Positions 15,235 to 33,142 of a stretch of 64,000 nt of DNA are shown piece by piece. The stretch is from the NCBI GenBank assembly GCA_041640655.1, contig JBEPZV010000006.1, forward strand, positions 1 through 64,000. The letters are read 5' to 3'. Source of the DNA: a bacterium (GTDB lineage: Bacteria > Acidobacteriota > Blastocatellia > HR10). Position 1 is the stretch's first letter, and every line of letters starts with the position of its first letter. Position numbers and translations under genes: made by a program. The notes beneath the pieces were generated by a model. That model ran no database searches and had not been told where the DNA came from. It was given only the letters and a program-made list of their open reading frames with translations.

Positions 15235-15276
15235 GTCGCGCTCCGGGGACTCGGCGCTCTGGAGGGCGAGTGGCTG

Positions 15277-15285: not shown

Positions 15286-15304
15286 ATGTGCGAGGAGATC
15301 GCCG

Positions 15305-15817
15305 ATGACGGGATCGAAGGCGAAGGCGCCGCGCGTTTCGGCGTCGGCAGCGAAGACGGCCGCCTCTGAGGAGCGTCCGGAGAAACGCCTCTTCTACGAG
15401 TATCTGCGTCGGAAGGGGTTGAAGCGCACGGCGCAGCGCGATCTCATCTTGGAGACGTTCCTGGAGAGCGAGAAGCATATCACGAGTGAGGAGCTCTATC
15501 GTAAGGTGCGGGAGCGCGATCCGACCGTCGGGTTCACGACGGTCTATCGCACGCTCAAGCTGCTCACTGAGTGCGGGATCGCCCGCTCCATGCAGCTTGG
15601 GGATCGTTACACGCACTACGAGCGGGGATTGGACGAGCAGCATCACGATCACCTCATCTGCATCGAGTGCGGGGGGGTCACGGAGTTCTTCAGTCAGCAG
15701 CTGGAGAACATCCAGGCCGAGGTGGTGCGGCGGCACGGTTTTCAGATGGTGGATCACAGCCTGCGCATCTGGGGGATTTGTCGGGAATGTCAACGGAGGC
15801 GCGCCTCTCGGAGATGA
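15305..15817 (+). CDS. fur: Fur-family transcriptional regulator
   Basis: [27 protein letters not shown] and a C-terminal CREC. Confidence 0.9.
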
Positions 15818-17368: not shown

Positions 17369-18244
17369 TCATCGCTCCGTGGGCGCTTCGGAGGCCTCCT
17401 TCGGCGCGCGTCCAGAGCCTCCTTGTGATGCCGCGTGGGATTTCTTTTCCGCTCCGCGTCTGGTGCGCTGGACGCGGGCGAGCGCCTTGAGTGTCGGATC
17501 GTCGGGATAGAGCTTCAGCATGACGGTCACGAAGGCGCGGATGAGGTCTTCGCGCATCTGTGGCGTGTAGGGGTTGTAGTGCTGGAGGTCGTGAAAGAGC
17601 TGCCACGTGTCGTGGGTCGTCTGCTCGATCACACCACGGATGGCCTCGAAGCCTTTGGTCGTGATCTCCCCCGATTCCAGAGGCAGCTCGCCGAGGATGC
17701 GGCCGACAAAGTGGGTGATGCCCTGGGAATAGGCGGCTCGCCGGTCGTGCTCATCCGGGGACATCTCGATCACCTGTACGCCGCGCCGCTGCCAGAAGGC
17801 GCGCCAGAAGTGGAGGGTGACGGGGCTCACGCGCACCGGGCAGAAGACGATGCGCAATCCTCGCAGACCATCCCGAGCGCTGTCGGGGCCAAAGAGTGGA
17901 TGCGTCCCCAGAGCTTCCACCCACGGTGGTAGCTCACGGCGCATGACTTCGATCGGATGGACCTTGACCGAGCAGGTGTCCAGGATCAGCCGGCCCGGAC
18001 CGAGGTGCGCGCGCGCCTCCCGAATGGCCGATTCGAACTCCGAGATGGGGACGGCGAAAAAGAGCGCGTCGGCCGCGCAGGCAGCTTCCAGGGAGACGAT
18101 CTGGACGCCGAGCTCGCGCGCGGCGATCGGATCAGGGTGCCGATCGTACACGAGGACGGGGAACTCTTCGCGAAGGATGCGGGCCAGCAGCCGACCGAAG
18201 CGGCCGAAGCCGATGATCGCGCATGTCCGCATCTGATCGCGCAT
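17369..18244 (-). CDS. Prephenate/arogenate dehydrogenase (short TyrA family)
   Basis: Rossmann GFGRFG, DTCSVK, HPLFGPDS and EHDRRAAYSQGITH. Confidence 0.88.
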   Translation of the reverse strand: MRDQMRTCAIIGFGRFGRLLARILREEFPVLVYDRHPDPIAARELGVQIVSLEAACAADALFFAVPISEFESAIREARAHLGPGRLILDTCSVKVHPIEVMRRELPPWVEALGTHPLFGPDSARDGLRGLRIVFCPVRVSPVTLHFWRAFWQRRGVQVIEMSPDEHDRRAAYSQGITHFVGRILGELPLESGEITTKGFEAIRGVIEQTTHDTWQLFHDLQHYNPYTPQMREDLIRAFVTVMLKLYPDDPTLKALARVQRTRRGAEKKSHAASQGGSGRAPKEASEAPTER

Positions 18245-18335
18245 CGTCCGAGAGCAGGGTAACAGAGAGTGCGCTCATCCGTCCAGGGGGGCGGCGCCGA
18301 GCGGTTGACCTCTCGTGTTCGGGGCGGATCGCGTG

Positions 18336-18344
18336 TGGTATAAT
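18336..18344 (+). promoter_or_regulatory. Extended -10 promoter upstream of the MoxR operon
   Basis: Perfect TG-G-TATAAT in the divergent intergenic region. Confidence 0.65.
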
Positions 18345-18495
18345 CGCGCGGGTGCACGAGGAATCCTACGGCGATCGGGAGATCGTCAGGGCCTCGCGGG
18401 GTGAGGGATGAGGTGATGGGACACGGCGCGCGGGCATCAGGAGAATGACGCAACCGGAGAGAGCCGCGGGACGTCCCTTGTGGTGAGGGTGTCGT

Positions 18496-20802
18496 GTGAA
18501 TCGCGTGTTTGAATGGCTCTTCAAATATCCGCCGGTCGTCTTCGAGCGCGGTGAGATCTCGTTCGCCGCGCTCTCCTCGACGAGCGCGTGGATGGCGTTC
18601 GGAGCGGTGGCGCTCGGTGGCGCATATGTGATCGTGCGGCGCGTTCGTCAGCCGCTCCCCCGCCGCTTGAAGATTCTCTTGATCGGCCTTCGGCTCGGCG
18701 CGTTCGTGCTTGTGATCTTGTGCCTGTTGCAACCCGTCGTGATCGTCCCGTCGGTCATCCCGCACCGCGCGACGGTCGCGCTCCTGGTCGACGATTCCTT
18801 GAGCATGGCGATCCCGGACGTGGACGGCCGGTCCCGCCTGGAAGCCGTGCGGGCGCTTCTGGCGCCGGAGGGTCCTTTTCTGCGTCAGCTCACGGCGAGA
18901 TTCGACGTGCGCCTCTTCTCGCTGAGCGGAGAGGATCTCTCATTGTCGGCGCGCGCGTCGGAGGCACCGCGCGCGATCTTCGGATCGGGTGGGAGGGCCG
19001 TGCGGACGGATCTCGGTGCCGGGCTCGAGCGCGTCCTCGCGACCCCTTTGGAGAAGCCTCTAGCGGCTGTCGTCCTCATCAGCGATGGCGGACATAATGT
19101 GCCGCGAGACCTCTCGACAATCCCCTCGCTCTTTCTCGCGCGGCGCGTTCCCCTTCACACGATCGGCGTGGGGCAGGAGCAGATCGCGCGCGACGTCGAG
19201 GTGGTACGGGTGAACGTCCCGCGACGGATTCTGAGGGGATCTTCGGTGAAGGCCGATCTCCTCGTGCGATGCGGGGGAGAGTCGCCTCGTCGTGTGACGC
19301 TCCGCGTCACCGAAGACGGGCGGACGCTGCAGAGCACGGAGATCGAATGCGCGGAAGCGTCGAGGCCTCAAGCCATCTCCCTCGAATTCACGCCAGCTGA
19401 GGCGGGGGTGCACCGGTACGTATTCAGCGCCGATCCGCAACCGCGAGAGCCGATCGTTGAGAACAATCGCGTGGAGGCGATCGTCGAAGTGCGCGATGAG
19501 GTCGCGCGCGTGCTCTACATCGAGGGGGAGCCCCGATGGGAATATGGGAAGATTCGGGCGGCCGTGGCCGATGACGAGCACCTCAATCTCGTCTCGGTCG
19601 TGCGCACGGCTCCGGGAAAGTTCTATCGTCAGGGCGTCGAGAGCGGGGAGGAGTTGGTGAAGGGATTCCCGGAGCGGCCGGAGGAGCTGTTCCGATTCAA
19701 AGGCGTGATCCTGGGGAGTGTGGAAGCCGGATTCTTCACGCGCGAGCAGTTGGAGTGGATGGAGGCCTTTGTCGCTCGGCGGGGTGGGGGGATGCTCATG
19801 TTGGGAGGGCCGCGCGCGTTCTCGGCTGGGGGGTATGCGTTGACGCCGCTGGCGGATGTTCTGCCGGTGGAGCTTCGGCGGCCCTCGGAAGTTCCGGCTC
19901 TCGCGGAAGCTTCGGCGTATGCGCCGGTGGTGACCGAGGCGGGGCGCGAGCATCCCCTCGCGCGGTTGGCGGCCGATCCGAAGGCCAATGAACGCGCCTG
20001 GCGCGCCTTGCCGCACGTGACTGTGCCGGAGATCTTCACGCGCGCCAAACCCGGTGCCCTCGTCGTGCTGGAGGGGGCGAATAGGTCGCGTGGGGGGACC
20101 CGCCCGATCTTGCTGGCCGTGCAGCGGTATGGACGTGGTCTGAGCCTGGCGTTCACCCCCTCGGACTCCTGGCGGTGGCAGATGGAGATGAGCTCGGTGG
20201 ATCTCTCGCACGAGACTTTTTGGAGACAGATGTTGCGGTACCTCATCAGCTTCGCCGATGATCCGGTGAATCTCCTGACCGATGCGGACGCGTACGAGGT
20301 GGGAGACGACGTGCCTGTTCGCGTCGAGGTGCGGGATGAGCTCTTCCACCCCGTGGCGGATGCCGCTCTGGACGTCCGCGTGCGAACTCCGCAGGGGGCG
20401 ACCGAACGTGTGCGCGTGAATCCCGCTCTGGAGAATGAAGGGGAATATGTCGGCCGGATCCTCGTGCGAGAGCCGGGGATCTATCGGCTTCAGGCGCGCG
20501 CGCGGCGGGGCGATCGGGAGCTGGGGCAGGCCGAAGCTCATCTGGTCGTCCGCGTGCCGGATCGGGAGTATCGCGAAGCCGGACAGAACGTCGAGCTGTT
20601 GAAATGGCTGGCTCGCGAGACCGGGGGGCGATATGCTCCGTTGTCAGATGCGGAGACGCTGCCTCCGGAGCTGGAGTACGTGGCGGGGGAGCACTCGATT
20701 CGCGTGACCAAAGAGTTGTGGGATATGCCGATCGTGTTCCTGCTCCTGGTGGGGCTGCTGTCGCTCGAGTGGAGCGTGCGACGAAAGCGAGGATTGATAT
20801 GA
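18496..20802 (+). CDS. Membrane-anchored VWA + Ig-like + glutamine-amidotransferase-like protein of the MoxR operon
   Basis: N-terminal TM segments, MIDAS DDSLS/T/SDG, VLYIEGEPRWE, GGGMLMLGG, WRW and a C-terminal TM ending EWSVRRKRG. Confidence 0.85.
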   Translation: MNRVFEWLFKYPPVVFERGEISFAALSSTSAWMAFGAVALGGAYVIVRRVRQPLPRRLKILLIGLRLGAFVLVILCLLQPVVIVPSVIPHRATVALLVDDSLSMAIPDVDGRSRLEAVRALLAPEGPFLRQLTARFDVRLFSLSGEDLSLSARASEAPRAIFGSGGRAVRTDLGAGLERVLATPLEKPLAAVVLISDGGHNVPRDLSTIPSLFLARRVPLHTIGVGQEQIARDVEVVRVNVPRRILRGSSVKADLLVRCGGESPRRVTLRVTEDGRTLQSTEIECAEASRPQAISLEFTPAEAGVHRYVFSADPQPREPIVENNRVEAIVEVRDEVARVLYIEGEPRWEYGKIRAAVADDEHLNLVSVVRTAPGKFYRQGVESGEELVKGFPERPEELFRFKGVILGSVEAGFFTREQLEWMEAFVARRGGGMLMLGGPRAFSAGGYALTPLADVLPVELRRPSEVPALAEASAYAPVVTEAGREHPLARLAADPKANERAWRALPHVTVPEIFTRAKPGALVVLEGANRSRGGTRPILLAVQRYGRGLSLAFTPSDSWRWQMEMSSVDLSHETFWRQMLRYLISFADDPVNLLTDADAYEVGDDVPVRVEVRDELFHPVADAALDVRVRTPQGATERVRVNPALENEGEYVGRILVREPGIYRLQARARRGDRELGQAEAHLVVRVPDREYREAGQNVELLKWLARETGGRYAPLSDAETLPPELEYVAGEHSIRVTKELWDMPIVFLLLVGLLSLEWSVRRKRGLI
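18962..19000. repeat. Degenerate in-frame copy of the 39-bp palindromic element
   Basis: aggcaccgcgcgcgatcttcggatcgggtgggagggccg aligns without gaps to 29271-29309. Confidence 0.75.
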
Positions 20803-21809
20803 CGGCGCCATGGCTCGAGCGGCTGATGGTGATCGCCTCGCTGCTCCTTCTGTGGCGAGGCGGGGCGCTCGCGTCGCCGCAGGAGGCGGCACCAGACCTG
20901 CGGTTCGCGGTGATCGTGCGCGGCCTGGGCGGAGATCCGGCCTTCGAGCGCACGTTCGCTTCGTGGGCGGAGCGTCTGTGCCAGCTCTTCATCGAGCGAT
21001 GGCGATTTCGTCCGGAGCATGTCTTTGTACTCACGCCCGAGGGCCGGGGATGCTCCCCGCAGGCGGCGCGGGCGACGGCCGAAGCTCTCCGGCGCGTGTT
21101 CGAGCGGCTGCGCGCGGAGAGCACGGAGGAGGGCGTCCTCTTCATCATGCTGATCGGGCATGGGAGCTTCGATGGCCAGCGCGGATATTTCCATCTTGTG
21201 GGACCGGATCTCTCGGCGGAGGATTTCGACGCGCTTCTGGCGAGCGTGAGAGCGCGTTCTGTCGTCTTCGTGAATACGGCGAGCGCCAGCGGCGCTTTCC
21301 TCCCCGTCGTGAGTCGGCGCGGGAGGATCGTCATCACGGCCACGCGCAGTGGGCGAGAGCAGCAAGCTCCGGTCTTCGCCCGCTATTTCATCGAGGCCCT
21401 CACGGATGCGCGAGCCGATACGAATAAAGACGGGCGCACCTCGCTTGCCGAAGCGTTCGCCTTCGCGACTCGGATGACGGCGGAGCATTATGCGCAACAG
21501 GGCCTTTTGGCGACCGAGCATCCCCTGTTGGATGATGATGGTGATGGCGTGGGGCATGGTGAGCTCTCGGGGGGAGATGGCGCGCTGGCGCGAATGGTGT
21601 ACCTGGAGGCGCCGGCCGAGGTGGAGGAAGCGGACGAGGAGTTGCGCGCCCTCTTGCGCGAGCGCGATGCGCTCTTGCAGAAGATCGAGGCGTTGAAGGC
21701 TCGCAAGGCCGAGATGCGTCCGGAGGATTATGAGCGGGAGTTGGAGCGGTGGCTGGTGGAGCTGGCTCGGATCACCGAGCGCATCCATGCGCGGGGGAAG
21801 AAGCCATGA
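20799..21809 (+). CDS. Exported caspase/C13-like fold protein with C-terminal coiled coil
   Basis: Signal peptide, LIGHGS, VFVNTASASG, VITAT and ADTNKDG. Confidence 0.75.
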   Translation: MTAPWLERLMVIASLLLLWRGGALASPQEAAPDLRFAVIVRGLGGDPAFERTFASWAERLCQLFIERWRFRPEHVFVLTPEGRGCSPQAARATAEALRRVFERLRAESTEEGVLFIMLIGHGSFDGQRGYFHLVGPDLSAEDFDALLASVRARSVVFVNTASASGAFLPVVSRRGRIVITATRSGREQQAPVFARYFIEALTDARADTNKDGRTSLAEAFAFATRMTAEHYAQQGLLATEHPLLDDDGDGVGHGELSGGDGALARMVYLEAPAEVEEADEELRALLRERDALLQKIEALKARKAEMRPEDYERELERWLVELARITERIHARGKKP

Positions 21810-24538
21810 TGCACCGGGGCGCCGGGCATGGGTCGTGGTTCCTCTTGGGAGCGCGGGGCGGGAGCGGGATCCTCTTGCTGGTGCTCGCTTTTCTGTGTGG
21901 GGGCGAGCGGGCCTGGGCGCAATCGTCGCTGGAAGCGGGGATGGAGAAGTTGCGACGGGGGGAGTATGCGGAGGCGATCGCCCTCTTCCGCACCGTGCTC
22001 GAGCGGGATCCGGAACAGACGCGCGCCATTGAGGGAACGATCATGGCCTTTGTCGAGACGGGGCGATATGAGGATGCCGAACGGATGGCGCGCGAGTTCC
22101 TGAGGCGGGCGTCCTCGGTGGGAGAGTCGGACGCGGCGCGCATTGAGATGTGGCTCGGGGAGGTGTATCTGGCGACGGGTCGGTATTGGGAGGCTTTGGC
22201 AGCGCTGGATCGGGCGCTCGCCCGCGAGGGATGGTCGGGCTTTCTGCGGGCCAGCGTGCAAAGAGGGCGAGTCCTCTGGCAGATGGGGCGCGTCGAGGAA
22301 GCGCGCGAGGGATTTCAGCAGCTCTATCGGAGGGCCATCGAGCGCGGGTTACACGCGGCGGAGGACCTGACGTGGATGGCGCGCGCGCTCGCGTATTTGG
22401 ATCGTCCACACGAGGCGAACGATCTCTACGCCGCGGCGATCGAGCGCGATCCTTCGTTCCTGGAGGCGTATCTGCAAGCCGGCGAGCTCTTCGTCGAGAA
22501 GTACAATTACGCGGAGGCCGCCGATTTCTTCCGCGAGGCGCTACGCCTCAATCCGCAGTGCGCGCGCGCGCATCTGGGATTGGCCCGCAGCGTGCGGCTG
22601 GAGCGTGGAGGGGAAGCGTGGGCGCATGTTCAGCGGGCGCTCGCCGTGAATCCACACTTGGTTGACGCGCATGATCTGGCGGCCGCGTTACTGCTGGAAG
22701 TGGGGGAGATCGAAGCCGCCGAGCGTCATCTGGAGCAAGCGCTCAGCGTGAATCCGCATTCGCTCTCGACGCGCGCCTATCGTGCCGTGGGGTTCTACCT
22801 GCGAGACCGCACGGCGGAGCTGGAGGAGGAGATTCGACGGGTGCAGCGTGTGAATCCGCGTTATGGCGAGGTGTATGCGACGCTCGCCGATTTCGCCGTG
22901 CTCAATCGCCGGTATCCGGAAGCTGTCGGATTCGCGCGGAAGGCCGTCGAGCTGTCGCCATGGCTGTGGCGCGCGTGGGCGACTCTGGGCCTCAACCTGC
23001 TGCGCGTGGGGCGCGACGCTGAGGGGCGTGAGGTCCTGGAGCGCGCTTTCGCTGGCGATCCGTTCAACGTGTGGGTGAAGAACACGCTCGATCTGCTCGA
23101 TCGCATGCGAGAGTATCAGGAGACGATCACCGAGCATTTCCTCATCCGCATGGCTCCGCGCGAGAGTCCAGTCTTGGCTCCACTGATGGCCGAGCTGCTC
23201 GAGCGGGCGTACGTGCAGCTCACCGAGCGGTATCGGTTTCGTCCTGAAGGGCCGATCATCGTCGAGGTGTTCCCGAACCACGAGGACTTCGCCGTGAGGA
23301 CCATTGGGCTGCCGGGCTTGGGGGCGCTCGGCGCGTGCTTCGGGCGTGTGATCGCCATGGATTCGCCGTCAGCGCGCCCGCGCGGGTCGTTCAACTGGGC
23401 GAGCACGGCCTGGCACGAATTCGCGCACGTGATCACGTTGCAGGCGACGGCCTATCGGATCCCGCGATGGTTCTCCGAGGGCATCTCCGTCTCCGAGGAG
23501 TGGCGGGTGCGAGGGGCACCTGATGCGCTCTTCGAATCGCGGGGGGACTCCGCGGGGTGGGGGGCTCGGTGGACGCTCGAGACCGTGCGCGCCTTCGGCG
23601 AGGGGCGATTCGTCCCCCTGCGGCAGTTGGAGGCGGCGTTCCTTCGCCCCTCGTCTCCGCATGCGCTCTCGCTCGCCTATTTCCAGGCGGGACTGATCGT
23701 CGAATTCCTCCTGGAGCGGTTCGGCTTCGAGCGCGTGCGACATATGCTCGAGCTGTATCGGCAGGGGGAGCGCACCGAGGGTGTCTTCCAGAAGGCGCTC
23801 GGCCTCACGCCGGACGAGCTCGATCGCCTCTTTCGCGAGCGCGTCGTTCAGGAGATCGGACCGTATCTGGCGCGCCTCGATGTATCGTTGCTTCAGCGAT
23901 CGGAGGTCTCGGAGGAGGAATTGCGCGAGGTGCTCGCGAGGCAGCCGGAGAATTTCGTCGCGCACCTTCGTCTGGGGCACCTCTATCGAGCGCGGGGGGA
24001 TGCCGCTTCGGCTCTTGTCCATCTGCGCGAGGCTATTCGTCTTTTCCCCTTCGACACGAGACCGGGGAATGCTCGCGAGATGCTCGCGGCGATCCTCGAG
24101 GAGCGCGGCGAGGAGGCTGAGGCCTTGCGGGTGCTGCAGCCGTGGGCGGCTCGCGAGGAGGCGAATCCCGAGCTGCATTGGCGGATCTTGCGCCTGGCGC
24201 TGAAGCTGGGGCGGAAGGGGCATCGGATCCCGTGGGAGGAGATCGCCGGGGGGGCGGTCGAAGCGCTTCTGGCGCTCGCTCCTTTGGATCGCGACGTGCA
24301 GATGCAGGCTGGCGAATTCTATCTGGAACAGGGTCGGCCCGAGCGCGCCGCGCGTGCGTTCTCGGCCGCGCTGCATTTGGATCCGCCCGATCGCGCGGAG
24401 GTCCATTATCAGCTCGCGCGAGCCCTCTTGGCGAAGGGGGCGCCGGATGACGCGCGGCGCGAGGTCTTGCGCGCGTTGGAGATCGCGCCCGGATTTGAGA
24501 AGGCGCTGGCGCTTCTGCTGAAACTCATCGAGAAGTGA
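21806..24538 (+). CDS. TPR-repeat protein with gluzincin (peptidase MA-like) domain
   Basis: Many TPR-like helical repeats; HEFAH plus downstream PRWFSEGI. Confidence 0.85.
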   Translation: MMHRGAGHGSWFLLGARGGSGILLLVLAFLCGGERAWAQSSLEAGMEKLRRGEYAEAIALFRTVLERDPEQTRAIEGTIMAFVETGRYEDAERMAREFLRRASSVGESDAARIEMWLGEVYLATGRYWEALAALDRALAREGWSGFLRASVQRGRVLWQMGRVEEAREGFQQLYRRAIERGLHAAEDLTWMARALAYLDRPHEANDLYAAAIERDPSFLEAYLQAGELFVEKYNYAEAADFFREALRLNPQCARAHLGLARSVRLERGGEAWAHVQRALAVNPHLVDAHDLAAALLLEVGEIEAAERHLEQALSVNPHSLSTRAYRAVGFYLRDRTAELEEEIRRVQRVNPRYGEVYATLADFAVLNRRYPEAVGFARKAVELSPWLWRAWATLGLNLLRVGRDAEGREVLERAFAGDPFNVWVKNTLDLLDRMREYQETITEHFLIRMAPRESPVLAPLMAELLERAYVQLTERYRFRPEGPIIVEVFPNHEDFAVRTIGLPGLGALGACFGRVIAMDSPSARPRGSFNWASTAWHEFAHVITLQATAYRIPRWFSEGISVSEEWRVRGAPDALFESRGDSAGWGARWTLETVRAFGEGRFVPLRQLEAAFLRPSSPHALSLAYFQAGLIVEFLLERFGFERVRHMLELYRQGERTEGVFQKALGLTPDELDRLFRERVVQEIGPYLARLDVSLLQRSEVSEEELREVLARQPENFVAHLRLGHLYRARGDAASALVHLREAIRLFPFDTRPGNAREMLAAILEERGEEAEALRVLQPWAAREEANPELHWRILRLALKLGRKGHRIPWEEIAGGAVEALLALAPLDRDVQMQAGEFYLEQGRPERAARAFSAALHLDPPDRAEVHYQLARALLAKGAPDDARREVLRALEIAPGFEKALALLLKLIEK
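23514..23552. repeat. Degenerate in-frame copy of the 39-bp palindromic element
   Basis: gggcacctgatgcgctcttcgaatcgcggggggactccg matches 29271-29309 at 31/39 positions without gaps. Confidence 0.75.
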
Positions 24539-24555
24539 AGCGTGGGGAGGTGAAG

Positions 24556-25320
24556 ATGAGGAGATGGGGGGGCCGACGTTCGCTTCGCGCGCGTCTCTGG
24601 ATCATCGGGGGCGCGATCTGTCTGCTCATGGGGGGGGCTCCATCGGGGGGCGCGTCTTCGTCGGGTCCTGATTCGGACGCGCCCTCGGATCGGTTCACAT
24701 TCGCGCGCATCCAGTACGGCGGACGGTTCTCCGCGCGCGCGTTCTTCGGAGCCGTGCCGCCGTGGGCGCACGATTATCCGCGCGGTGGACGCCATCTGAT
24801 GAAGATCCTGAGCGAGGTGAGCCTCGTGCGGGTGCATCCCGAGGAGGTGATCCTCCGTTTTGACGATCCTCGAGTGTTCAAATACCCGTTCGCCTATCTC
24901 TGCGAGGTGGGGTTCATGGATTTGAGCGATCGGGAGATCGAGGGCTTGCGGGAGTATCTGCTGCGTGGCGGCTTCCTCATTGTGGACGATTTCCGTGAGG
25001 AGTGGGCGCTGGAGAATCTCCGCGCGCATCTGCGCCGCGCCTTCCCGGAGCTGGAGCTGGAGGAGTTGGATCTCTCTCATCCCATCTTCAACTGCTTCTT
25101 CAGCATTCGGACGCTCGAGGTGACGCCCCCCTATGGCGAGGGCGTGCCCAAGTTCTTCGGCCTCTCGGACACGAAGGGGCGCTTGATGATGATCGTCAAC
25201 TACAACAACGACATCAGCGAATACTGGGAGTGGTCGGATGACCCCTTCGCGCCCATCGAGCAGACGAACGAGGCCTTCAAATTCGGCGTGAATTACGCCA
25301 TCTATGCGCTGACGCATTGA
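24556..25320 (+). CDS. DUF4159 domain protein
   Basis: FTFARIQY, WAHDYP, YPFAY, LREYLLRGGFLIVDDF, SHPIF and FGVNYAIYALTH. Confidence 0.87.
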   Translation: MRRWGGRRSLRARLWIIGGAICLLMGGAPSGGASSSGPDSDAPSDRFTFARIQYGGRFSARAFFGAVPPWAHDYPRGGRHLMKILSEVSLVRVHPEEVILRFDDPRVFKYPFAYLCEVGFMDLSDREIEGLREYLLRGGFLIVDDFREEWALENLRAHLRRAFPELELEELDLSHPIFNCFFSIRTLEVTPPYGEGVPKFFGLSDTKGRLMMIVNYNNDISEYWEWSDDPFAPIEQTNEAFKFGVNYAIYALTH

Positions 25321-25346
25321 TGTTGCGGAGGAAGGAGATCGACGCG

Positions 25347-26375
25347 ATGCTCACCAACAAAGCCATTGATCCCACCCGCGATGAGGAGCTACTGGAGAGA
25401 CTCGTCCGGGCGAAGGCGCAGATCTTGCGAGAGATTCGGAAGGTGATCGTCGGACAGGATGAGGTGATCGAACAGGTGCTCATCTCGCTCTTCGTCGGCG
25501 GGCATTCGATCATCACGGGGGTGCCGGGGCTGGCCAAGACGCTCTTGATCAAGACCATCGCCAACGCCCTCGATCTGAAGTTCAAGCGCATTCAGTTCAC
25601 CCCGGATCTCATGCCGAGCGACATCACGGGGACGGAGGTCATCGAAGAGGATCGGACGACGGGCAAGCGGCATTTTCATTTCGTCCCGGGGCCGATCTTC
25701 GCCAACATCGTCCTGGCGGATGAGATCAATCGGACGCCACCGAAGACGCAGGCGGCGTTGTTGGAGGCCATGCAAGAGGGGGCGGTGACGGTCCAGGGGG
25801 CGACGTACGAGCTGCCGAAGCCCTTCTTCGTGCTGGCCACGCAGAATCCGATCGAGATGGAGGGGACGTATCCGTTGCCGGAGGCGCAACTGGATCGCTT
25901 CATGTTCAATATCCGGATCAGCTACCTGAGCGAAGACGACGAGGTGGAGGTCGTGCGGGCGACGACGGCGCCGCAGGAGGTCGTCGTCGAGCGGCAGATC
26001 ACGGGGCGGGAGATCGTCGAGTTCCAGCGATTGATTCGGCAGGTGCCGGCTGCCGATCCGGTCATCCGCTACGCCGTGCGCCTGGTGGGGGCCAGCCGCC
26101 CCGAGAATGGGACCTTCGATTTCGTGCGCCGCTGGGTCAATTGGGGAGCGAGCCTGCGCGCTTCGCAGTTCCTCATCCTGGGGGGGAAAGCCCGCGCCAT
26201 CTTGAACGGTCGGTACCATGTCTCGTGCGAGGATGTGCGGGCGCTGGCCTATCCCGTCTTGCGCCATCGCATCCTCGTGAACTTCCAGGCGGAATCCGAA
26301 GGTGTGACCTCGGAGGAGATCGTCCGTCGCCTGCTGGAGGCGGTGCCGGAACCGGCATCGGGACTCTCGGTATGA
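25347..26375 (+). CDS. MoxR-family AAA+ ATPase
   Basis: GVPGLAKT, RIQFTPDLMPSDITG, ADEINR, ATQNPIE and YPLPEAQLDRF. Confidence 0.96.
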   Translation: MLTNKAIDPTRDEELLERLVRAKAQILREIRKVIVGQDEVIEQVLISLFVGGHSIITGVPGLAKTLLIKTIANALDLKFKRIQFTPDLMPSDITGTEVIEEDRTTGKRHFHFVPGPIFANIVLADEINRTPPKTQAALLEAMQEGAVTVQGATYELPKPFFVLATQNPIEMEGTYPLPEAQLDRFMFNIRISYLSEDDEVEVVRATTAPQEVVVERQITGREIVEFQRLIRQVPAADPVIRYAVRLVGASRPENGTFDFVRRWVNWGASLRASQFLILGGKARAILNGRYHVSCEDVRALAYPVLRHRILVNFQAESEGVTSEEIVRRLLEAVPEPASGLSV

Positions 26376-27301
26376 ATGGCTCGGCTCAGTACGGGGTTCC
26401 CACCGCGGGGCGTCGGTTTCGATTCCTGCGCCCCGAGGTGCTGGCGAAGATCGCCTCGCTGGAGCTTCTGGCGCGCACGGTCGTGGAGGGGTTCCTGGCC
26501 GGTCTGCACCGCTCGCCGCACATTGGCTTCAGCATGGATTTCGCGGAATATCGCCCGTACATGCCCGGTGACGATCTGCGCTATCTCGACTGGAAGGTGT
26601 TGGCGCGGACCGATCGCGCCTACATCAAGAAGTTCCGTGGCGACACGAACACGCGCTTGTATGTGCTGCTGGATGTGAGCGCCTCGATGACCTATCGGCT
26701 CCCGCCGGCGATCGAGAAGCGGGAATATGCATGCTATCTGGCGGCTTCGCTCGCGTATCTGGCGACGCGACAGAACGACGCCGTCGGGGTGATCACCTTT
26801 GATCGCGGAATCGTGGACTATATTCCCGCGCGATTGCGTCCGGGCCAACTTCATCGGATCTTGAGCGCGTTGGAGCGGATGAAGCCGGGCGGGACTTCCG
26901 CGATCTCCGAGGCCCTGCGGCGCATCGCCGAACGCCTGCGGCGACGCGGCCTCGTCGTGCTGCTCTCGGACCTGTACGAGCCGCTGGAGACGCTCGGCCC
27001 CGCCCTGCGGCTCTTTCGTGCTCATGGGCAGGACCTCATCGTCTTTCAGATTCTGGACGAATCGGAAGTGGAGTTTCCGTTCACCGAGGCCGCGCGCTTT
27101 GTCGACGTAGAGACGGGAGAAGACGTGCCCGTGGCTCCCGAAGCGCTTCGGGCCAGCTATCGCGAGGCTGTGCGTCGGCATCTGGACGAGATCGAGCGCT
27201 TCTGTCGCGCGCACGGGATCGGGTATCAGCGGATGTTCACGAGGCAGCCGCTCGATGAGGCGCTCTTGGCTTACCTCGGGCGGCGGGCTCGCTGGCCGTA
27301 A
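26372..27301 (+). CDS. DUF58 domain protein
   Basis: GLHRSP..FAEYRPYMPGDDLRYLDWK, LDVSASM and LSD. Confidence 0.93.
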   Translation: MNGSAQYGVPTAGRRFRFLRPEVLAKIASLELLARTVVEGFLAGLHRSPHIGFSMDFAEYRPYMPGDDLRYLDWKVLARTDRAYIKKFRGDTNTRLYVLLDVSASMTYRLPPAIEKREYACYLAASLAYLATRQNDAVGVITFDRGIVDYIPARLRPGQLHRILSALERMKPGGTSAISEALRRIAERLRRRGLVVLLSDLYEPLETLGPALRLFRAHGQDLIVFQILDESEVEFPFTEAARFVDVETGEDVPVAPEALRASYREAVRRHLDEIERFCRAHGIGYQRMFTRQPLDEALLAYLGRRARWP

Positions 27302-27317
27302 GGGGGGAGGACGCGCC

Positions 27318-29561
27318 ATGTCGTTTCTGAGTCCGTGGTTCTTGCTCGGCGCGCTCGCGCTCCTTGTGCCCGTGCTCATTCATCTGAGGCGGCGGGAGCC
27401 TCAGCAACGCGTCCCGTTCGCATCGGTCTTGTTTCTGCGCCGATTGCCTGGGCCCATCCATCGGCGCCGGCGCCTGCGGTATTGGCTGCTCTTTCTGCTG
27501 CGCTCGGGGGCATTGCTGCTGCTCGTTCTGGCGTTCGCGCGTCCGTATTGGCGCGGTCATGGAGCGGGGGAGTTGTCCGGGACGGCGCTCGTCGTGCTGC
27601 TGGACTGCTCGTTCAGCATGCGCTATGGGGCGCGCTTCGCGCGGGCGCAGGAGAGGGCCGAGGAGGTTCTGGCGCGCGCTCCTGATGGGGCCCGCGTAGG
27701 CGTGATCGGGTTCTCCACGACCGCGGAGGTCCGCGTGCCACTGGGACGTGATCGAGAGGTGGCGCGCGCGGCCGTGCGGGCGCTGCGCCCGACGTTTCGC
27801 GCGACCGATTATGCGCGCGGGCTGCAGGCGGCGCTCGCGCTTCTGGAGAATGCCGAGGAGGGGGAGAAGATCATCTACCTCATCTCGGATTTCCATCGTT
27901 CGGAACAGCGAGTGAGTGGGGGGGATCCCGGGTGGCGTCTCCCTCGCGGCGTGCGTGTGGTGCCGATTTCGGTCGCCTCTGAGGTGGGTGAGAACCGCGC
28001 CATCGTGGACGTGCGCGTGCTCTCGGGCGCGGCGCAGTCGGGACGTGGAGCCCCGTGGCGCCTCCTTGTGCGTGTGGGGAACTTTCAGAGCGCGAGGGCG
28101 CGCATGGGGATTCGCCTCTCGGTCAATGATCGGCTCGTTCAAGGGAAGGCGATCGAGCTGGATCCGGATGCCGTCGCGACGGTCGAATTCGCCGACGTCC
28201 CCCTCGATCCGGGGGACAATCGGGTTCGTCTCGAAGCGGATCCCGATCGGCTGCCCGAGGACGATCGCTTCTTCCTCGTCCTGCGGCGCGAGCTGCCGAA
28301 GCCGGTGCTCATCCTGGAGGGCTCGCGAGCGCGCGCGCCGTCGCAGCGGGCGAGCTTCTACGTGCAGCAAGCACTTCTGGCCGATGATGCTCTCGGCCCG
28401 GAGCGGGTCGTCGTGCGAACCGTCGCGGAGGCCAGGGAGGGGAACCCCGTGGCGGAAGTCGCGGAGGCGGAGGCGGTGGTGGTCGTGGATCCCATCGCCC
28501 TTGACGCGAGGTGGGCGACGGCCCTTCGCCGGTTCGTCACAGAAGGTGGAGGGGCGATTCTGGCGCTTGGTCCTCAGACGGAGGCGCGCGCGTTCAATGC
28601 GGCGTTCGGATCATGGCTGGGCGTGCGTGTGGAGGAGCCGGGAGGTTCCCTGAGAGAGCCCGCGTTGCTCGCGGAGATCGCGACCGAGCATCCGATCTTT
28701 CGTCCCTTTGCGGATCCGCGGCGGGCGAATTTCTCCCGCGTGCGATTCTCCGGATATGCCGGGTTGGTGCTCGATGAGACGGGAGGGAGCGCGCCTTCTT
28801 CGGCGATCCTCGTTCTGGCGCGGTTTTCAGATGGGCGACCGGCCATTGTGGAGATCACGCGCGGGCGGGGGAAGGTGATTTTGCTCGCCTTCGGTCTCGA
28901 TGCGCGTTGGAGCACGCTCCCGCTCACGCCGCTGTATGCTCCACTGCTGCATCAAATGCTCGGGGCGGTGAGACGACCCTCACCGCCGCCCTTTTTCCGC
29001 GTGGGGGAGAGCATCGCCGTGGAGGGGGAGGAGTTCACCGCGTCGGTCATCGTGCGAGCGCCCGATGGAGAACGTCTGCGGCTCGATGAGGTGGGGGGGA
29101 CCTGGGGATTCACTCCGGAGCGCGTGGGCTTTTATCACCTGCGGCGTCTGCGTGGGGAGGAGCCTATCGCGGTCAACGTCGAGGCGGGAGAGTCGGACGT
29201 GCGACCCATGGAGGGGGCGGAGCTGGACCACTTCCTGGCCTCCCTGGGCGGGCGGGAATCAGGGCTGCGTGGGCACCCCACGCGATCTTCGGATCGCATG
29301 GGGACCCCGAGTGACTCTACCCTGAATGCCAGCGGTGGGCGCGCGACGGATGCGGGGGCATCCCAGGGGGATCTCGTGGCGGCGGAGCGAAGCCGGGCGT
29401 GGCGCGCGTTGCTGCTGGCTGCCATGCTGCTGCTTCTCTCGGAAGCCATCCTGGCCGAGCGCGCTCCTGGCAGGCACCCCACGCGATCCGAAGATCGCAT
29501 GGGGATCCCGAGACGGCGTCGTCCGATCGGCGCCTCTGTGCAAGAGGAAGGGAGGAGGTGA
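27318..29561 (+). CDS. BatA-domain + VWA membrane protein
   Basis: MSFLSPWFL..PVLIHL N-terminus, LAFARP, MIDAS DCSFS/T/SD and a C-terminal TM. Confidence 0.88.
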   Translation: MSFLSPWFLLGALALLVPVLIHLRRREPQQRVPFASVLFLRRLPGPIHRRRRLRYWLLFLLRSGALLLLVLAFARPYWRGHGAGELSGTALVVLLDCSFSMRYGARFARAQERAEEVLARAPDGARVGVIGFSTTAEVRVPLGRDREVARAAVRALRPTFRATDYARGLQAALALLENAEEGEKIIYLISDFHRSEQRVSGGDPGWRLPRGVRVVPISVASEVGENRAIVDVRVLSGAAQSGRGAPWRLLVRVGNFQSARARMGIRLSVNDRLVQGKAIELDPDAVATVEFADVPLDPGDNRVRLEADPDRLPEDDRFFLVLRRELPKPVLILEGSRARAPSQRASFYVQQALLADDALGPERVVVRTVAEAREGNPVAEVAEAEAVVVVDPIALDARWATALRRFVTEGGGAILALGPQTEARAFNAAFGSWLGVRVEEPGGSLREPALLAEIATEHPIFRPFADPRRANFSRVRFSGYAGLVLDETGGSAPSSAILVLARFSDGRPAIVEITRGRGKVILLAFGLDARWSTLPLTPLYAPLLHQMLGAVRRPSPPPFFRVGESIAVEGEEFTASVIVRAPDGERLRLDEVGGTWGFTPERVGFYHLRRLRGEEPIAVNVEAGESDVRPMEGAELDHFLASLGGRESGLRGHPTRSSDRMGTPSDSTLNASGGRATDAGASQGDLVAAERSRAWRALLLAAMLLLLSEAILAERAPGRHPTRSEDRMGIPRRRRPIGASVQEEGRR
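29271..29309. repeat. 39-bp palindromic element, best-preserved copy, in frame (GHPTRSSDRMGTP)
   Basis: gggcaccccacgcgatc-ttcg-gatcgcatggggaccccg forms a hairpin with a cTTCGg loop. Confidence 0.9.
29472..29510. repeat. 39-bp palindromic element copy with inverted loop, in frame (RHPTRSEDRMGIP)
   Basis: aggcaccccacgcgatc-cgaa-gatcgcatggggatcccg. Confidence 0.9.
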
Positions 29562-32500
29562 TGACGATGCATTCGTCGGAGGAACTGCTGGATCTCGTTC
29601 GTCGCCTGCGTCGGCGCTGGATGTGGGGACATCTGCTTGAGCGCGCGGCTTATGGGGCGTTGGTGGTTCTCGGGTGGATGGTTCTGGCGGGGATCGTGAC
29701 CGCGCGCGCACCCATGGCGTCGGGGACGATGATGGTCCTTCGCGTGGGCACGCTCGTTGTTCTTCTCGGGGCGGCATACGTGTGCGTCTTTCGACCGCTG
29801 CGTCGGCGTCCCGATGAGGTGACCTTCGCGCGCTTCATCGAGGAGCGCGAGCCGCGGCTGGAGGATCGGCTGGTGACTGCCGTCGAGATTCTCGCTCCAT
29901 CGAGAGCGACTGCGGCGGGGACGGTCGTCTCTTCGGGCGAACGTGCCGGCGGTTTCTCTCCGGTGATCGTTCGGCGGTTGATCACCGACGCTCTCGCGCA
30001 GTGTTCGACGGTGAGCCGGGAGAGTGTGCTGCCGACGCGCGTCTTGCGCCTTCGAGCGATCTTGGCAATCGCCCCTGTCGTTCTCTTTGGAGCGTTGGTG
30101 TTGCTTGGTCCGGGATCGTTGCGCATGGGTTGGCAGCGGCTCTATTGGCCGTGGGGGATCGCCGCGCCGCCCCATGTCGCGATTCGCGTGCATCCGGGAG
30201 ATACGCGCGTTCCCCGCGGCCTGGATCAGGTCGTGACGGCCACGCTGCACAACTTCGAGGCGGAATCGGCGCGTCTGGTCTTTCGACCGCGCGGGGAATC
30301 GAACTGGCAGGCACACGCGATGCAGCGCGTGGAGCCTCGAACCTTTCGGTTCCTCTTCTCCGACCTCCAGCGGACGGTCGAATACTACGTGGAAGCCCGC
30401 GCGGTTCGTTCTCCTGCGTTCCGGATCGAAGTCGTGGACTGGCCGCGGGTGAGTCGGCTGGAGGTGATCTACACCTATCCGGCGTACACGGGGCACGCGC
30501 CGCGAAAGGTGGATGACGGAGGGGAGATCACGGCGGTGAAGGGGACGCGCGTGACGGTGATCGCCCATCTGAATGGGCGCGTGCGCGAGGCGCGGTTGGT
30601 CTTCGATGATGGGACCTCGGTGGCGATGCAGGCGCTCCACGGGGACCCCGAAGCGCCTGAGGGGGAGGCGCGCTTCACTGCGCAGATCGTCATCCGGAGA
30701 GATGCCCGCTACCACGTTCGCGTGCGGCCATTTGTGGGGGAGGAATATGCGGCCTCGCGCGAGTACACCATCACGGCGCTTGAGGACGCGCCGCCGACGA
30801 TCGTCATCGAGAAGCCGGGGCGCGATCTGAAGGTGACGGCCATTCAGGAAGTGTTCACCGAGGCGCGCGTCGAGGATGACTATGGCATCGCCCTGGTGGA
30901 ATTGCGCTACTCGATCAATGGTGAACCCGAACAGACGGTCATCCTTCACCGCGCGGGTACCCCCCGAGGGTCGGGGGCGCCTGTTCGGGTGATCACAGGC
31001 TCGCATACGTTCTTCCTGGAGGAGCTGAATCTGAAGCCCGGCGATGTGATTAGCTACTACGTCAAGGCGCGCGATACGAACACGGTGACCGGACCCGGCG
31101 AAGCGACGAGCGACATCTACTTCCTTGAAGTGCGTCCCTTCGATCGGCGATTCCGTCAGGCGCAGCAGGCGCCGACCGGTCAGGGGGCGGAGGAGCACGA
31201 GGGCGCCTTCGCCGAGCGGCAGAAAGAGATCATCGCCGCCACGTGGCGCGTCCTTCGGGAGAAGGATCGCGTCCCGGGCGAGGAGTTTCGAGCGAACGTG
31301 AATACGCTCGAGTTGGCGCAGACCAAGCTGCGCGAGGACGTGCAAGCGGTCGTGGACCGCATGTGGCGGCGATTGGGCGAGAGCCTGGAGGAGATGGAGG
31401 ATTTCAAGAAGCTCTTCGAGGCGTTGAGCGCTGCCGTTCGGGAGATGGAGCGCGCCGCGGACGAGCTGCGGGCGCGCCGGTTGAGAGAGGCCTTGCCCTT
31501 CGAGCAGCGCGCGTATCAGCAACTGCTTCGCGCCGATGCGGTCTTTCGAGAGGTTCAAGTCGCTCTCGCCAATCGGGCCGAGAGTGGGGGGAGCGCGCGG
31601 GCTCAAGATTTGGCCGATCTGTTCGAGCTGGAGCTGGACAAGATGCAGAATCAGTACGAGACGATTCAGCGCGATCGCGGTCGGGCGCGCGATCGGCAGT
31701 TGGAGGAGGTGGAGCGCCGACTCCGGGAGTTAGCTGAGCGGCAGCAACGGCTCTTGGAGCAGAGCTTGCGACAAGGCGCCGCGCGGGCACCCCGTGGGGA
31801 CCCAGGGCGCTCGGGCGAGGACGGGCGCCTGGCCCAAGAGGTGCGTGAGTTGGCTCGACGCCTGGAGCGGTTGACGCGGGAGCGACCGCTGTCGGAATTG
31901 GATCGGGTGCGCCAGCAACTGGAGCGAGCCGCGCGCGAGCTGCAGCGCGCGCGCGGCGCTTCGACCGAGGGCGAGGCTGCTGCTCATCGGCAACAAGCTC
32001 TGGAGCATATGCGGACGGCGCAGCGTCAGCTCCAGTTGGCGCAACGTTCGCAGCTTGGAGAGGACGTCGCTCGGTTGCGCGAACAGGCGCGCCAAGCGCA
32101 CGAGCAGCAGGAGCGCATCGCGCGCGAGGTCGAACGTCTGGCGCGGGAAGCCGGACGGGCGACCGATGTGCTCCGGGAGCGAAAATCGGCGCTCGCCGAG
32201 GAGGTGGCGCGTTTGAGGGAGCGCATCGAGGATGCGGCGCGACGAGCCCGTCAAGAGAATAACGCGCGCGCGGCCGGGAGCCTCTCTGCGGCTGCCGAGA
32301 CCATTCGGCGTCAACGCCTTCCGGAACGGATCGCGCAGGGGAATCGCTGGCTTGAGAACCGATGGCTCGACCGTGCCACTTCGGAGGAGCGCGCCATCGG
32401 ACGCGCTTTGGATGAGGTCGTTCGTCATTTGAACGAAGCCGCGCGGGATGTGAGATCGCGCCAATCGGGAGATCACGTGGCCGAAGCGTTGGATCGCGCG

Positions 32501-33142
32501 CGTCGCTTGGCCGAGAATCTCGAATCGCTTCGGGACCGACTGTCATCGCGTGAGGGCGCGCGCGCTCGTGGTGAAGAATCGCCGAGCGGGCCGCGTTCGT
32601 CCTCGCCGCAGAGGGCCGATCAATCTGGTGGGCGAGCTCGGGCGACGGCTGAACCGTCGCGGGAGGTGTCCGGGGAACGGCGCACGGGCGAGGCATGGAG
32701 GAATCCTATAGGGAGCCGGGGACCAGCTCGCGACTCCACTACCGATGCCACGGCCTTTGGACAGCCTCGACTGCGATCCGAGCGCGATCTGGGGGAAGCG
32801 CTCCGGCAACTTCGCCGCGAACTGGATGAGCGCGTGCGGGAGGCCGAAGCGTTGCGGCGTAGCCTTCTGCCTGTGCGCGATCTGGTGGATGACGCGAGCC
32901 GCCTCATCGCCGAGCTTCGACGACTCGATGCCGAGCGGCTCTTCAACGATCCTGAGGAGATCGAGCGCTTGAAGCGTCAAGTGCTCGATCCCCTGCGCCG
33001 ATTGGAGTGGGAGTTGAGCCATCGGCAGCAAGAGCAACTGGGCGCAGACCGATTGCAATTGGGGGAGGAAGCAGCCGTCCCGCCAGAATACCGGCGCTTG
33101 GTCCAGGAGTACTATCGCCGGCTCGCCCGCCAGCCGAAGTGA
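29561..33142 (+). CDS. DUF4175-like large membrane-anchored coiled-coil protein
   Basis: N-terminal TMs, Ig-like middle region (DDYGI, LKPGDVISYYVKARD), long coiled coil and C-terminal VPPEYRRLVQEYYRRL; TGATG coupling. Confidence 0.85.
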   Translation: MTMHSSEELLDLVRRLRRRWMWGHLLERAAYGALVVLGWMVLAGIVTARAPMASGTMMVLRVGTLVVLLGAAYVCVFRPLRRRPDEVTFARFIEEREPRLEDRLVTAVEILAPSRATAAGTVVSSGERAGGFSPVIVRRLITDALAQCSTVSRESVLPTRVLRLRAILAIAPVVLFGALVLLGPGSLRMGWQRLYWPWGIAAPPHVAIRVHPGDTRVPRGLDQVVTATLHNFEAESARLVFRPRGESNWQAHAMQRVEPRTFRFLFSDLQRTVEYYVEARAVRSPAFRIEVVDWPRVSRLEVIYTYPAYTGHAPRKVDDGGEITAVKGTRVTVIAHLNGRVREARLVFDDGTSVAMQALHGDPEAPEGEARFTAQIVIRRDARYHVRVRPFVGEEYAASREYTITALEDAPPTIVIEKPGRDLKVTAIQEVFTEARVEDDYGIALVELRYSINGEPEQTVILHRAGTPRGSGAPVRVITGSHTFFLEELNLKPGDVISYYVKARDTNTVTGPGEATSDIYFLEVRPFDRRFRQAQQAPTGQGAEEHEGAFAERQKEIIAATWRVLREKDRVPGEEFRANVNTLELAQTKLREDVQAVVDRMWRRLGESLEEMEDFKKLFEALSAAVREMERAADELRARRLREALPFEQRAYQQLLRADAVFREVQVALANRAESGGSARAQDLADLFELELDKMQNQYETIQRDRGRARDRQLEEVERRLRELAERQQRLLEQSLRQGAARAPRGDPGRSGEDGRLAQEVRELARRLERLTRERPLSELDRVRQQLERAARELQRARGASTEGEAAAHRQQALEHMRTAQRQLQLAQRSQLGEDVARLREQARQAHEQQERIAREVERLAREAGRATDVLRERKSALAEEVARLRERIEDAARRARQENNARAAGSLSAAAETIRRQRLPERIAQGNRWLENRWLDRATSEERAIGRALDEVVRHLNEAARDVRSRQSGDHVAEALDRARRLAENLESLRDRLSSREGARARGEESPSGPRSSSPQRADQSGGRARATAEPSREVSGERRTGEAWRNPIGSRGPARDSTTDATAFGQPRLRSERDLGEALRQLRRELDERVREAEALRRSLLPVRDLVDDASRLIAELRRLDAERLFNDPEEIERLKRQVLDPLRRLEWELSHRQQEQLGADRLQLGEEAAVPPEYRRLVQEYYRRLARQPK
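31785..31803. repeat. Collapsed derivative of the palindromic element (arms only)
   Basis: gggcacccc-gt-ggggaccc, encoding RAPRGDP. Confidence 0.6.

Follow-up and report, generated by a model that had tools for sequence, protein, structure and literature searches.

The 64-kb window (i.e. the whole stretch of DNA that was analysed) was found to contain a gene cluster in which a short palindromic element recurs in frame. The host genes are as follows.

18496..20802, plus strand: 768-aa protein, encoded in the same gene cluster, for which Pfam gave weak matches only (MG2, GATase1_like)
21749..24538, plus strand: 929-aa protein with TPR repeats and a Peptidase_MA_2 domain (HEFAH motif)
27255..29561, plus strand: 768-aa BatA N-terminal and VWA protein (PF07584, 9.7e-17; PF13519, 3.3e-18)
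29561..33142, plus strand: DUF4175-like protein, whose start ATG overlaps the BatA stop

In total, five copies of the element were identified in the window: two near-perfect copies, two decayed copies and one internally deleted remnant.

29270..29309, minus strand: copy 1, 40 nt, CGGGGT...TGCCCA on the minus strand, in frame in the BatA_N and VWA gene
29471..29510, minus strand: copy 2, 40 nt, 17 codons before the stop of the BatA/VWA gene, in frame in its C-terminal tail
18962..19000, minus strand: copy 3, decayed, in-frame insert in gene 18496-20802 (768 aa), peptide APRAIFGSGGRA
23514..23552, minus strand: copy 4, decayed, in-frame insert in the part of the TPR-peptidase gene that encodes Peptidase_MA_2, peptide GAPDALFESRGDS
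31783..31806, minus strand: copy 5, remnant of 24 nt (8 codons) in the DUF4175 gene, CGGGCACCCC/GTGGGGACCC

An exact-match search of the window returned two matches (29274-29303 and 29475-29504), with none expected in 100 shuffles. Both BatA copies, which carry GHPTRSSDRMGTP and RHPTRSEDRMGIP, agreed in sequence and frame with the 39-nt palindromes described in an earlier, sequence-only reading of this DNA. Copy 1 is located at residues ~673-686, in the linker ahead of the C-terminal TM helix of the protein. Copy 2 has the same orientation with an inverted loop (CGAA); the loops TTCG and CGAA are mutual reverse complements, and the arms and outer flanks keep one orientation. Copies 3 and 4, which that reading had listed as degenerate, exhibited 4 and 5 mismatches, respectively, to the 24 specified core bases, for which the reversed pattern served as a control and gave no match genome-wide. 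Their nhmmer scores were weak (E of 0.13 and 3.3, respectively), and orthologue alignment identifies both as real insertions. Copy 5 retains the outer parts of the element, its central 18 nt being deleted, and explains why the reading had extended the feature to 31803. The same reading had called gene 18496-20802 a VWA gene.

The repeat unit was defined as 40 nt, CGGGGT-CCCCAYGCGATC-N4-GATCGCRTGGGG-TGCCCG (consensus CGGGGTCCCCACGCGATCTnnAGATCGCGTGGGGTGCCCG), forming a hairpin in which a 4-nt loop is closed by an inner stem of 12 bp and, further out, by an outer stem of 4 bp. Between the two stems lies a conserved 2x2 mismatch (GT/TG), kept in 22 of 31 distinct copies, which gives the element its polarity. 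The ends of the unit are sharp, with an information content of ~0 beyond the 40 nt.

For comparative analysis, the present genome (G000) was aligned with six sister genomes of the same genus, of which G002 is the closest. All five window copies were shown to be insertions without counterpart in orthologues, the three older copies being common only to G000 and G002 and the two young BatA copies missing in all six sister genomes. Orthologues of the BatA/VWA gene were found in 22 of the 31 genomes searched (G000 included). At copy 1, a 42-column gap was observed in all six same-genus orthologues, with the 42-bp footprint placed by MAFFT at about 29273-29314, and a 42-column gap relative to G002 was observed at copy 2; neither insert is present in any of 13 aligned homologues. 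Conservation among orthologues resumes at the GGAGG...ATG of the DUF4175 gene. G002 carries diverged copies at the sites of copies 3 and 4, where G003, G001 and G006 display 42- and 39-column gaps, respectively; G005 has a 33-column gap at the former site and also lacks the insert at the latter. Copy 5, present in G000 and G002, corresponds to a 24-column gap in G005 and to shorter gaps in G001, G003 and G006. Copy 1 was bridged with 0 differences by contigs from two independent runs (X3 and X4) and copy 2, likewise with 0 differences, by contig records 16 and 22. Joints of low depth in X3 (skips of 10, 113 and 117 nt; depth 14 versus ~3000) were attributed to a diverged relative and left out.

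Of 12 clean comparisons between filled and empty sites, 11 yielded a footprint of exactly 42 bp (14 codons), which exceeds the 40-nt element by 2 nt. One footprint of 45 bp was also observed. Of 14 sites examined on one contig of the present genome (C1), eight correspond to gaps of exactly 42 columns in relatives. The converse was also observed, as G002 and G005 carry copies at sites that are empty in the window (gaps of 42, 42 and 45 columns). The sequence-only reading had proposed that a length that is a multiple of three lets the element persist. The 42-bp footprint holds even at the probably non-coding site C1:58526, so the multiple of three looks intrinsic and the length would therefore not derive solely from selection on insertions. 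Flanking bases matched in register more often than expected (-2 versus +1 in 19 of 38, 12.9 expected; -1 versus +2 in 16 of 38, 9.9 expected), with off-register comparisons at expectation in this per-base test. Flanking dinucleotides were identical in 11 of 40 copies (3.6 expected), although one off-register control was also high (9). These data weakly support a 2-nt target duplication. A series of ages was also apparent: copies confined to G000 have 0 core mismatches, and those shared with G002 have 4-5 mismatches or the 18-nt internal deletion. At other element sites, parts of the element (27, 15 and 30 nt) have been deleted in frame in G002.

Beyond the window, nhmmer identified 27 copies in G000 at E<=0.014, and a pattern census allowing <=2 mismatches counted 15 copies in G000, 21 in G005, 10 in G002 and 3 in G006, with none in G001, G003, G004 or G007 and none for the reversed patterns used as a control. 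At least 11 of the 27 G000 matches, together with the three decayed window copies, are intragenic in ORFs backed by Pfam or orthologue alignment, and further hosts include an ETF protein and MerA/MerT-like proteins. At several sites, the element is found at the end of a gene or between genes of an operon. Relative to the sense strand of the host gene, the tally was 14 versus 9; an orientation bias was rejected, as this difference is not significant. In metagenome contigs, the element is joined to many different flanks. Two of the checks suggested by the sequence-only reading, orthologue alignment and a genome-wide count, revealed lineage-specific inserts that distant homologues lack and further copies in G000 and its relatives. 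Both outcomes support its proposal of a short, non-autonomous hairpin carried in frame by protein regions that tolerate it.

The mobilising enzyme suggested in that reading, a RAYT/IS200-like Y1 transposase, was not found: PF01797 (Y1_Tnp/RAYT) gave no match at E<=0.01 in G000, G002, G005 or G006, which are 90, 87, 73 and 97% complete, respectively, and the GTAG/CGTC tag is missing. Positive controls gave matches in 6 of 14 genomes, and a RAYT gene may have been missed, the carrier MAGs being incomplete. DDE_3 (IS630), rve and DEDD_Tnp_IS110 gave no match in G000, G002 or G005. A Pfam scan of the C1 island (25 ORFs) revealed metabolic, mer and redox genes, with TnpB as the sole transposase. 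The TnpB-only element at C1:28738-30254, which is the sole IS observed, was rejected as the source of the hairpin, as its ends are without such sequence. No parent IS with ends matching the element was found, and no fixed flanking word that could act as an insertion target is conserved (flank information ~0).

It is conceivable that no dedicated transposase is involved and that the hairpin is copied by replication template switching, or by microhomology-mediated repair, from a nearby extruded copy. Such copying would explain the clustering of the element (20 of the 27 G000 copies are on C1, which represents 7% of the assembly, and five fall in a 13-kb part of the window) as well as the varying extent of microhomology at the junctions (1, 2, 4 and 7 nt). 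Consistent with it are also the tandem or abutting pairs in G005 and the negative transposase searches in the carrier genomes. We nevertheless regard it as unlikely, because copying of this kind sits poorly with the sharp ends and the constant 42-bp footprint, with the conserved polarity mismatch, which suggests recognition by a protein, and with the presence of identical 38-40-nt units between unrelated flanks in unrelated MAGs that bear the titles Thermoflexus sp. and Pseudomonadota bacterium.

The hairpin itself is under constraint. Across copies, 95.2% of alignment cells are paired, and pair 12-29 occurs as CG (22), UG (3), GC (2), UA (2) and AU (1); the covariation score exceeded all 500 shuffles and all slid controls. 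The predicted DNA fold has an energy of -15 to -16 kcal/mol (z of -3.6 to -4.2), and one strand has more G.T wobbles than the other (18 versus 8). Such a stable hairpin with an uneven share of wobbles between its strands, several copies of which are at gene ends or between operon genes, could represent a cis-element selected at each site, as the site of a dimeric regulator or as an mRNA hairpin that acts in stability, in attenuation or in processing by an RNase, rather than a selfish sequence. This explanation is very unlikely, given that older copies lose the palindrome (z of -1.3 and -1.5) or are partly deleted, that the host genes are unrelated and hold the element in both orientations, and that sister species function without these copies. 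Furthermore, no Rfam family matched, a scan of 18000-32000 at E<=1 returning only a chance hit to sR38 (19.8 bits versus a gathering score of 50).

The arms contain zero stop codons in all six frames. Among distinct copies, 23 of 31 are stop-free in six frames, compared with 101 of 256 possible loops, and stop-free loop variants are enriched among the copies. Peptides from every frame are rich in Gly, Pro, Arg, Ser, Thr and Asp. The earlier reading had the element read in two frames, which were correctly described; over all copies, the element appears in three reading frames and both orientations and is present outside ORFs as well. That reading's argument against protein-level convergence is upheld, and convergence, ancestral sequence or an assembly artefact can be dismissed, in view of these frames, the absence of the insert from 64 of 64 peptidase and 13 of 13 BatA homologues, and the identical copy 1 in contigs of two independent runs.

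The peptidase provides the closest view of an inserted peptide. Copy 4 sits 9 residues past the conserved SEGISVxEE motif and adjoins the metalloprotease active-site helix, and its 13 insert columns hold residues in none of the 64 distant homologues. In the AlphaFold model, the insert is predicted to be coil with a pLDDT of ~63 (<50 at 119-122), compared with a model mean of 92.9. The 14 residues added by an insertion are presumably translated; contigs from RNA run X20 cover just 28800-28947 and 29741-29899, outside the element copies. An example of a predicted insert-spanning peptide is ...GLRGHPTRSSDRMGTPSD....

Several known systems resemble the element in part. Rickettsia palindromic elements (RPEs; Ogata et al. 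2000, as summarised in PMC10969869 and PMC3733652) are likewise palindromes located in frame in unrelated, apparently functional genes, with a peptide that is missing from orthologues, and in those summaries their mobilising enzyme is not identified either. However, RPEs are ~150 bp (PMC10969869) and belong to obligate intracellular Alphaproteobacteria, whereas the present element is a single simple hairpin of 40 nt (42-bp footprint; 13-14 aa) in free-living hot-spring bacteria; the distinction is drawn from length and description. As summarised for repetitive extragenic palindromes (REPs) of the GTAG and CGTC superfamilies (RAYT/TIRYT), the element is a dispersed, GC-rich, imperfect palindrome in the 20-40-nt range. 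Frequent G.T pairing in REP stems is described in PMC3733652, and REPs entirely within ORFs are reported there for Opitutus terrae, R. conorii and Thauera (Di Nocera et al. 2013). In contrast to REPs as so described, the consensus is without a GTAG or CGTC tag, no Y1 transposase was found in the four carrier genomes searched, ~30 strongly clustered copies are present instead of hundreds, and intragenic sites account for roughly half, or more, of the copies that could be classified, where REPs are mostly extragenic. Prokaryotic MITEs, as outlined in PMC10969869, are similarly non-autonomous and little more than a pair of inverted repeats; they may show a short target duplication and are at times fused in frame with host ORFs. 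They measure 50-500 bp, compared with the GC-rich 40 nt here, and neither a parent IS with matching ends nor, in G000, G002 or G005, a match to DDE_3, rve or IS110 was found. Palindromes derived from IS200/IS605 differ in that the element has no fixed tetra- or pentanucleotide target and no PF01797 match, and a RAYT-type mechanism is at most a tentative analogy. The 12-mers of the arms had no match in the bacterial literature searched, with matches only in unrelated eukaryote papers, and no literature on repetitive extragenic palindromes in hot-spring Acidobacteria was found there. The family and its mobiliser appear to be undescribed so far, the behaviour being known from Rickettsia and some REPs.

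The family, which displays insertion polymorphism, a constrained hairpin, a defined footprint, a series of decay states and, at the level of DNA, in-frame read-through, very probably represents mobile (or recently mobile), non-autonomous, REP/MITE-like palindromic repeats of 40 nt. In the mechanism that we propose, the element would transpose as a single-stranded hairpin by means of a trans-acting enzyme, new copies landing with the fixed 42-bp footprint and so adding 14 codons. Proteins would tolerate the read-through of inserts in their linkers, tails and surface loops. After insertion, a copy would no longer be maintained and would drift by point changes and in-frame internal deletions. More tentatively, and with considerable doubt, the element could be a selfish hairpin suited to the genes of compact thermophile genomes, moved by machinery other than the known Y1, DDE or IS110 transposases and passing between hot-spring phyla. 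Adaptation to genes would fit the 14-codon footprint, the six-frame-open arms, the stop-free loops and the loop-prone peptides, and passage between phyla is suggested by the identical units in Thermoflexus- and Pseudomonadota-labelled MAGs.

As no recognisable transposase of the families searched accompanies the element, its mobilising mechanism becomes a testable question. In-frame palindromic elements are not peculiar to Rickettsia or to RAYT-linked REPs. In annotation, copies make ORFs longer and can lead to wrong assignments of domains and orthologues. Furthermore, the young, old and partly deleted states in sister species constitute a natural, datable series of 14-residue insertions in conserved proteins, which can serve to study the tolerance of proteins to insertions in loops.

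The sequence-only reading had placed two near-perfect copies of a palindromic element in the BatA gene, and these positions were borne out by a 30-nt pattern derived from the copies, which matched the window at 29274-29303 and 29475-29504 only and gave no matches in 100 shuffles. The end coordinate that it had assigned to the finding (31803) is explained by a fifth copy, a remnant at 31783-31806.

Genes and element copies in the window

27255-29561: 768-aa ORF with BatA_N and VWA_2 domains, holding both near-perfect copies in frame
18496-20802: 768-aa gene, with an older copy at 18962
23514: older copy in the TPR-peptidase gene
31783-31806: fifth copy, a 24-nt remnant (CGGGCACCCC joined to GTGGGGACCC) in the DUF4175 gene, central 18 nt deleted

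The BatA copies encode the peptides GHPTRSSDRMGTP and RHPTRSEDRMGIP. When six genomes of the same genus were aligned over the 3' part of the gene, every relative had a clean gap at each copy, measuring exactly 42 columns against the closest relative, G002 (91% protein identity). At the protein level, both 14-residue segments were missing from 13/13 aligned homologues (genus, n=6; family to class rank, n=7), two further genomes having no tblastn hit for the C-terminal query. Contigs from two other hot-spring sequencing runs (X3 and X4) cross both copies with 0 differences, and a ~96%-identical relative in a third run (X19) also possesses both.

The degenerate copies previously noted at 18962 and 23514 were shown to be real insertions, but older ones, as they are present in diverged form in G002 and missing from G005, G003, G001 and G006, with gaps in G003, G001 and G006 of 42 columns at the former site and 39 at the latter. 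The remnant at 31783-31806 is common to the genome of the window (G000) and G002, and is missing from G005. At sites other than these, three orthologous G002 copies are shortened by 27, 15 or 30 nt; the window remnant is shortened by 18 nt. Every one of these losses is divisible by three, which would be expected of host genes that remain under selection.

For the peptidase, a search of 1.84 billion cluster representatives returned 3350 hits at E<=0.001, and the query was aligned with 64 of the best 150; the 13 insert columns are empty in all 64 homologues. The insert lies nine residues past the conserved SEG(I/L)SVxEE, downstream of HEFAH and shortly before a conserved PGWG. In an AlphaFold2 model based on this alignment (mean pLDDT 92.9), it forms a coil following helix 94-110, with a pLDDT of ~63, falling below 50 at residues 119-122. 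The peptidase insert is thus predicted to be a loop, in agreement with the earlier proposal that the element persists in tolerant protein loops.

Copies from the whole G000 assembly and its relatives, oriented by their asymmetric outer flanks, define a 40-nt unit, CGGGGT-CCCCAYGCGATC-N4-GATCGCRTGGGG-TGCCCG, outside which information content is approximately zero. The structure ((((..((((((((((((....))))))))))))..)))) is 95.2% paired (n=31 distinct copies), although collection by a palindromic pattern with <=3 mismatches biases most columns towards pairing. Pair 12-29 is not favoured by this pattern, as its G-C and A-T variants cost two mismatches each, and it occurs as CG (22), UG (3), GC (2), UA (2) and AU (1). 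The covariation score was reached by none of the 500 shuffles and by no slid control. A GT/TG 2x2 internal mismatch, retained in 22 of the 31 distinct copies, confers polarity on the hairpin; G.T wobbles are commoner on the GT/TG-oriented strand than on its complement (18 versus 8), a bias from small numbers and related copies which tentatively points to one of the strands as active. Folding energies of the young copies as single-stranded DNA lie between -15 and -16 kcal/mol (z -3.6 to -4.2), while folds of old copies are unremarkable (z -1.3 and -1.5). No matching family was found in Rfam.

The two BatA copies carry 4-nt loops, TTCG and CGAA, that are reverse complements, with arms and outer flanks in equal orientation, a point overlooked in the sequence-only reading; the loop is therefore flipped between the hairpin arms. 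Both copies also share one G-to-A change in the right arm (29298 and 29499; C.A mismatch, + strand). The X19 relative reads G at both positions, restoring perfect palindromes, a reading given little weight because short-k contigs may be chimeric across repeats. Together, the shared change, the opposite loops and the X19 bases suggest gene conversion between the two copies, which lie 201 bp from each other, or correction of the palindrome; alternatively, the pattern at 29298 and 29499 could be an artefact of contig assembly.

In G000, the proposed genome-wide nhmmer search returned 27 hits with E<=0.014, of which 20 are on another contig, C1 (7.2% of the assembly), two on the window contig and five elsewhere; the two decayed window copies fail this threshold and lie outside the count. 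The insertion footprint was surveyed at 14 C1 sites. At eight of them, between one and four relatives had a gap of exactly 42 columns, the remaining six being unclean (diverged flanks, one flank not located, sharing of the copy with the sole alignable relative, or partial deletions).

Features of contig C1

37866, 49363, 57601, 58526, 61553, 169583, 173704 and 175016: sites with an exact 42-column gap
28738-30254 (locus excerpt L047:1738-3254): TnpB-only insertion sequence (HTH_OrfB_IS605, OrfB_IS605, Cas12f1-like TNB)
56713-57828 and 58467-59642 (L048:12713-13828 and 14467-15642): DUF3179 paralogues
Host genes: OpcA, MerA-like protein (HMA/Pyr_redox_2 linker), MerT-HMA protein, DUF3179, Crp-family regulator, ETF

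Across C1 and window sites, clean filled/empty comparisons gave 42 bp in 11/12 cases and 39 bp in one. Flanking dinucleotides were identical in 11/40 copies (3.6 expected), with one off-register control also high, and per-base flank matches (19/38 and 16/38 versus 12.9 and 9.9 expected) were enriched in register only; a 2-bp target duplication is accordingly plausible, but not proven. Reciprocally, G002 and G005 copies occupy sites empty in the window (a gap of 45 columns at about 26698 and gaps of 42 columns at about 29032-29043 and 20882), alongside several more complex cases, tandem pairs included. The ~14-kb operon has thus been targeted by many independent insertions: the window contains five copies, of which three recur in G002, while G002 has another that is private to it and G005 has about ten. 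In G005 orthologues of this operon, abutting or overlapping pairs (L040:1424-1503 and L022:3174-3245; one tandem, one in opposite orientation) indicate that the element also inserts beside or into existing copies.

Conceptually translated in three frames and both orientations, the element reads RGPHAIxRSRGVP, GHPTRSxDRMGTP or GTPRDLxIAWGP. Its arms are free of stops in all six frames; so, over their whole length, are 23/31 distinct copies, compared with 101/256 possible loops. In both DUF3179 paralogues on C1, a U-P-x-C motif (AYUPVCGTG, TWUPLCSSG) includes an in-frame TGA, at an identical position of the profile, which probably specifies selenocysteine in place of a redox cysteine; one of them also holds an in-frame element copy.

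A pattern census (<=2 mismatches) identified 15 copies in G000, 21 in G005, 10 in G002 and 3 in G006, with none in G001, G003, G004 or G007 and no matches to reversed-pattern controls. Scanning one genome per species for the exact pattern gave 18 loci, by record title in Bacterium HR08 (11), Bacterium HR10 (3), MAG Pseudomonadota bacterium SAR270 (3) and MAG Thermoflexus sp. (1), the flanks in both MAGs being unrelated to G000. In the Pseudomonadota MAG (G031; L110, L111, L112), the identical 40-nt hairpin is the centre of a longer repeat, with ~115 nt common to three copies, more in two, and outer inverted repeats CGCCGATTTTGGCCGC / GCGGCCAAAATCGGCG.

The C1:27-63 kb segment encodes mer-like and redox functions (two MerR, two MerT-HMA, MerA-like, CopZ-like, AhpC/TSA and OsmC) and is syntenic in G002, G005 and partly G006 only, not in G001 or G003. 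With approximately half of all G000 copies inside it, this segment may represent an accessory island and, possibly, the route by which the element entered.

The suggested RAYT/IS200-like transposase was not recovered, no Y1_Tnp match being found at E<=0.01 in G000, G002, G005 or G006 (MAGs, 73-97% complete); G031 has one hit, elsewhere than its three hairpin repeats. Searches of seven genomes of the genus for DDE_3, rve and IS110 found nothing in G000, G002 or G005 (73-97% complete MAGs). Given this completeness and these four families, the negative searches do not make a mobiliser absent. The TnpB-only element on C1, the sole insertion sequence seen, was rejected as the hairpin source, as the hairpin is missing from its ends. 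It adjoins a truncated 6-phosphogluconolactonase-like ORF at a site empty in G002; several contig ends of G006 carry related termini.

In-frame palindromic insertions are described for Rickettsia RPEs and some REPs (PMC10969869, PMC3733652), and the present element resembles them in this behaviour. It differs from REPs, as neither a GTAG nor a CGTC tag is present, a RAYT was not found and copies are few and clustered, and from RPEs in its length (40 nt versus ~150 bp; PMC10969869), and does not fit the defining features of either group. Its arm 12-mers do not occur in the bacterial papers searched. The element is genuine: a mobile palindrome of REP/RPE-like character, restricted by lineage and kept in frame within genes, and a variation on a kind of insertion already known from RPEs and REPs.
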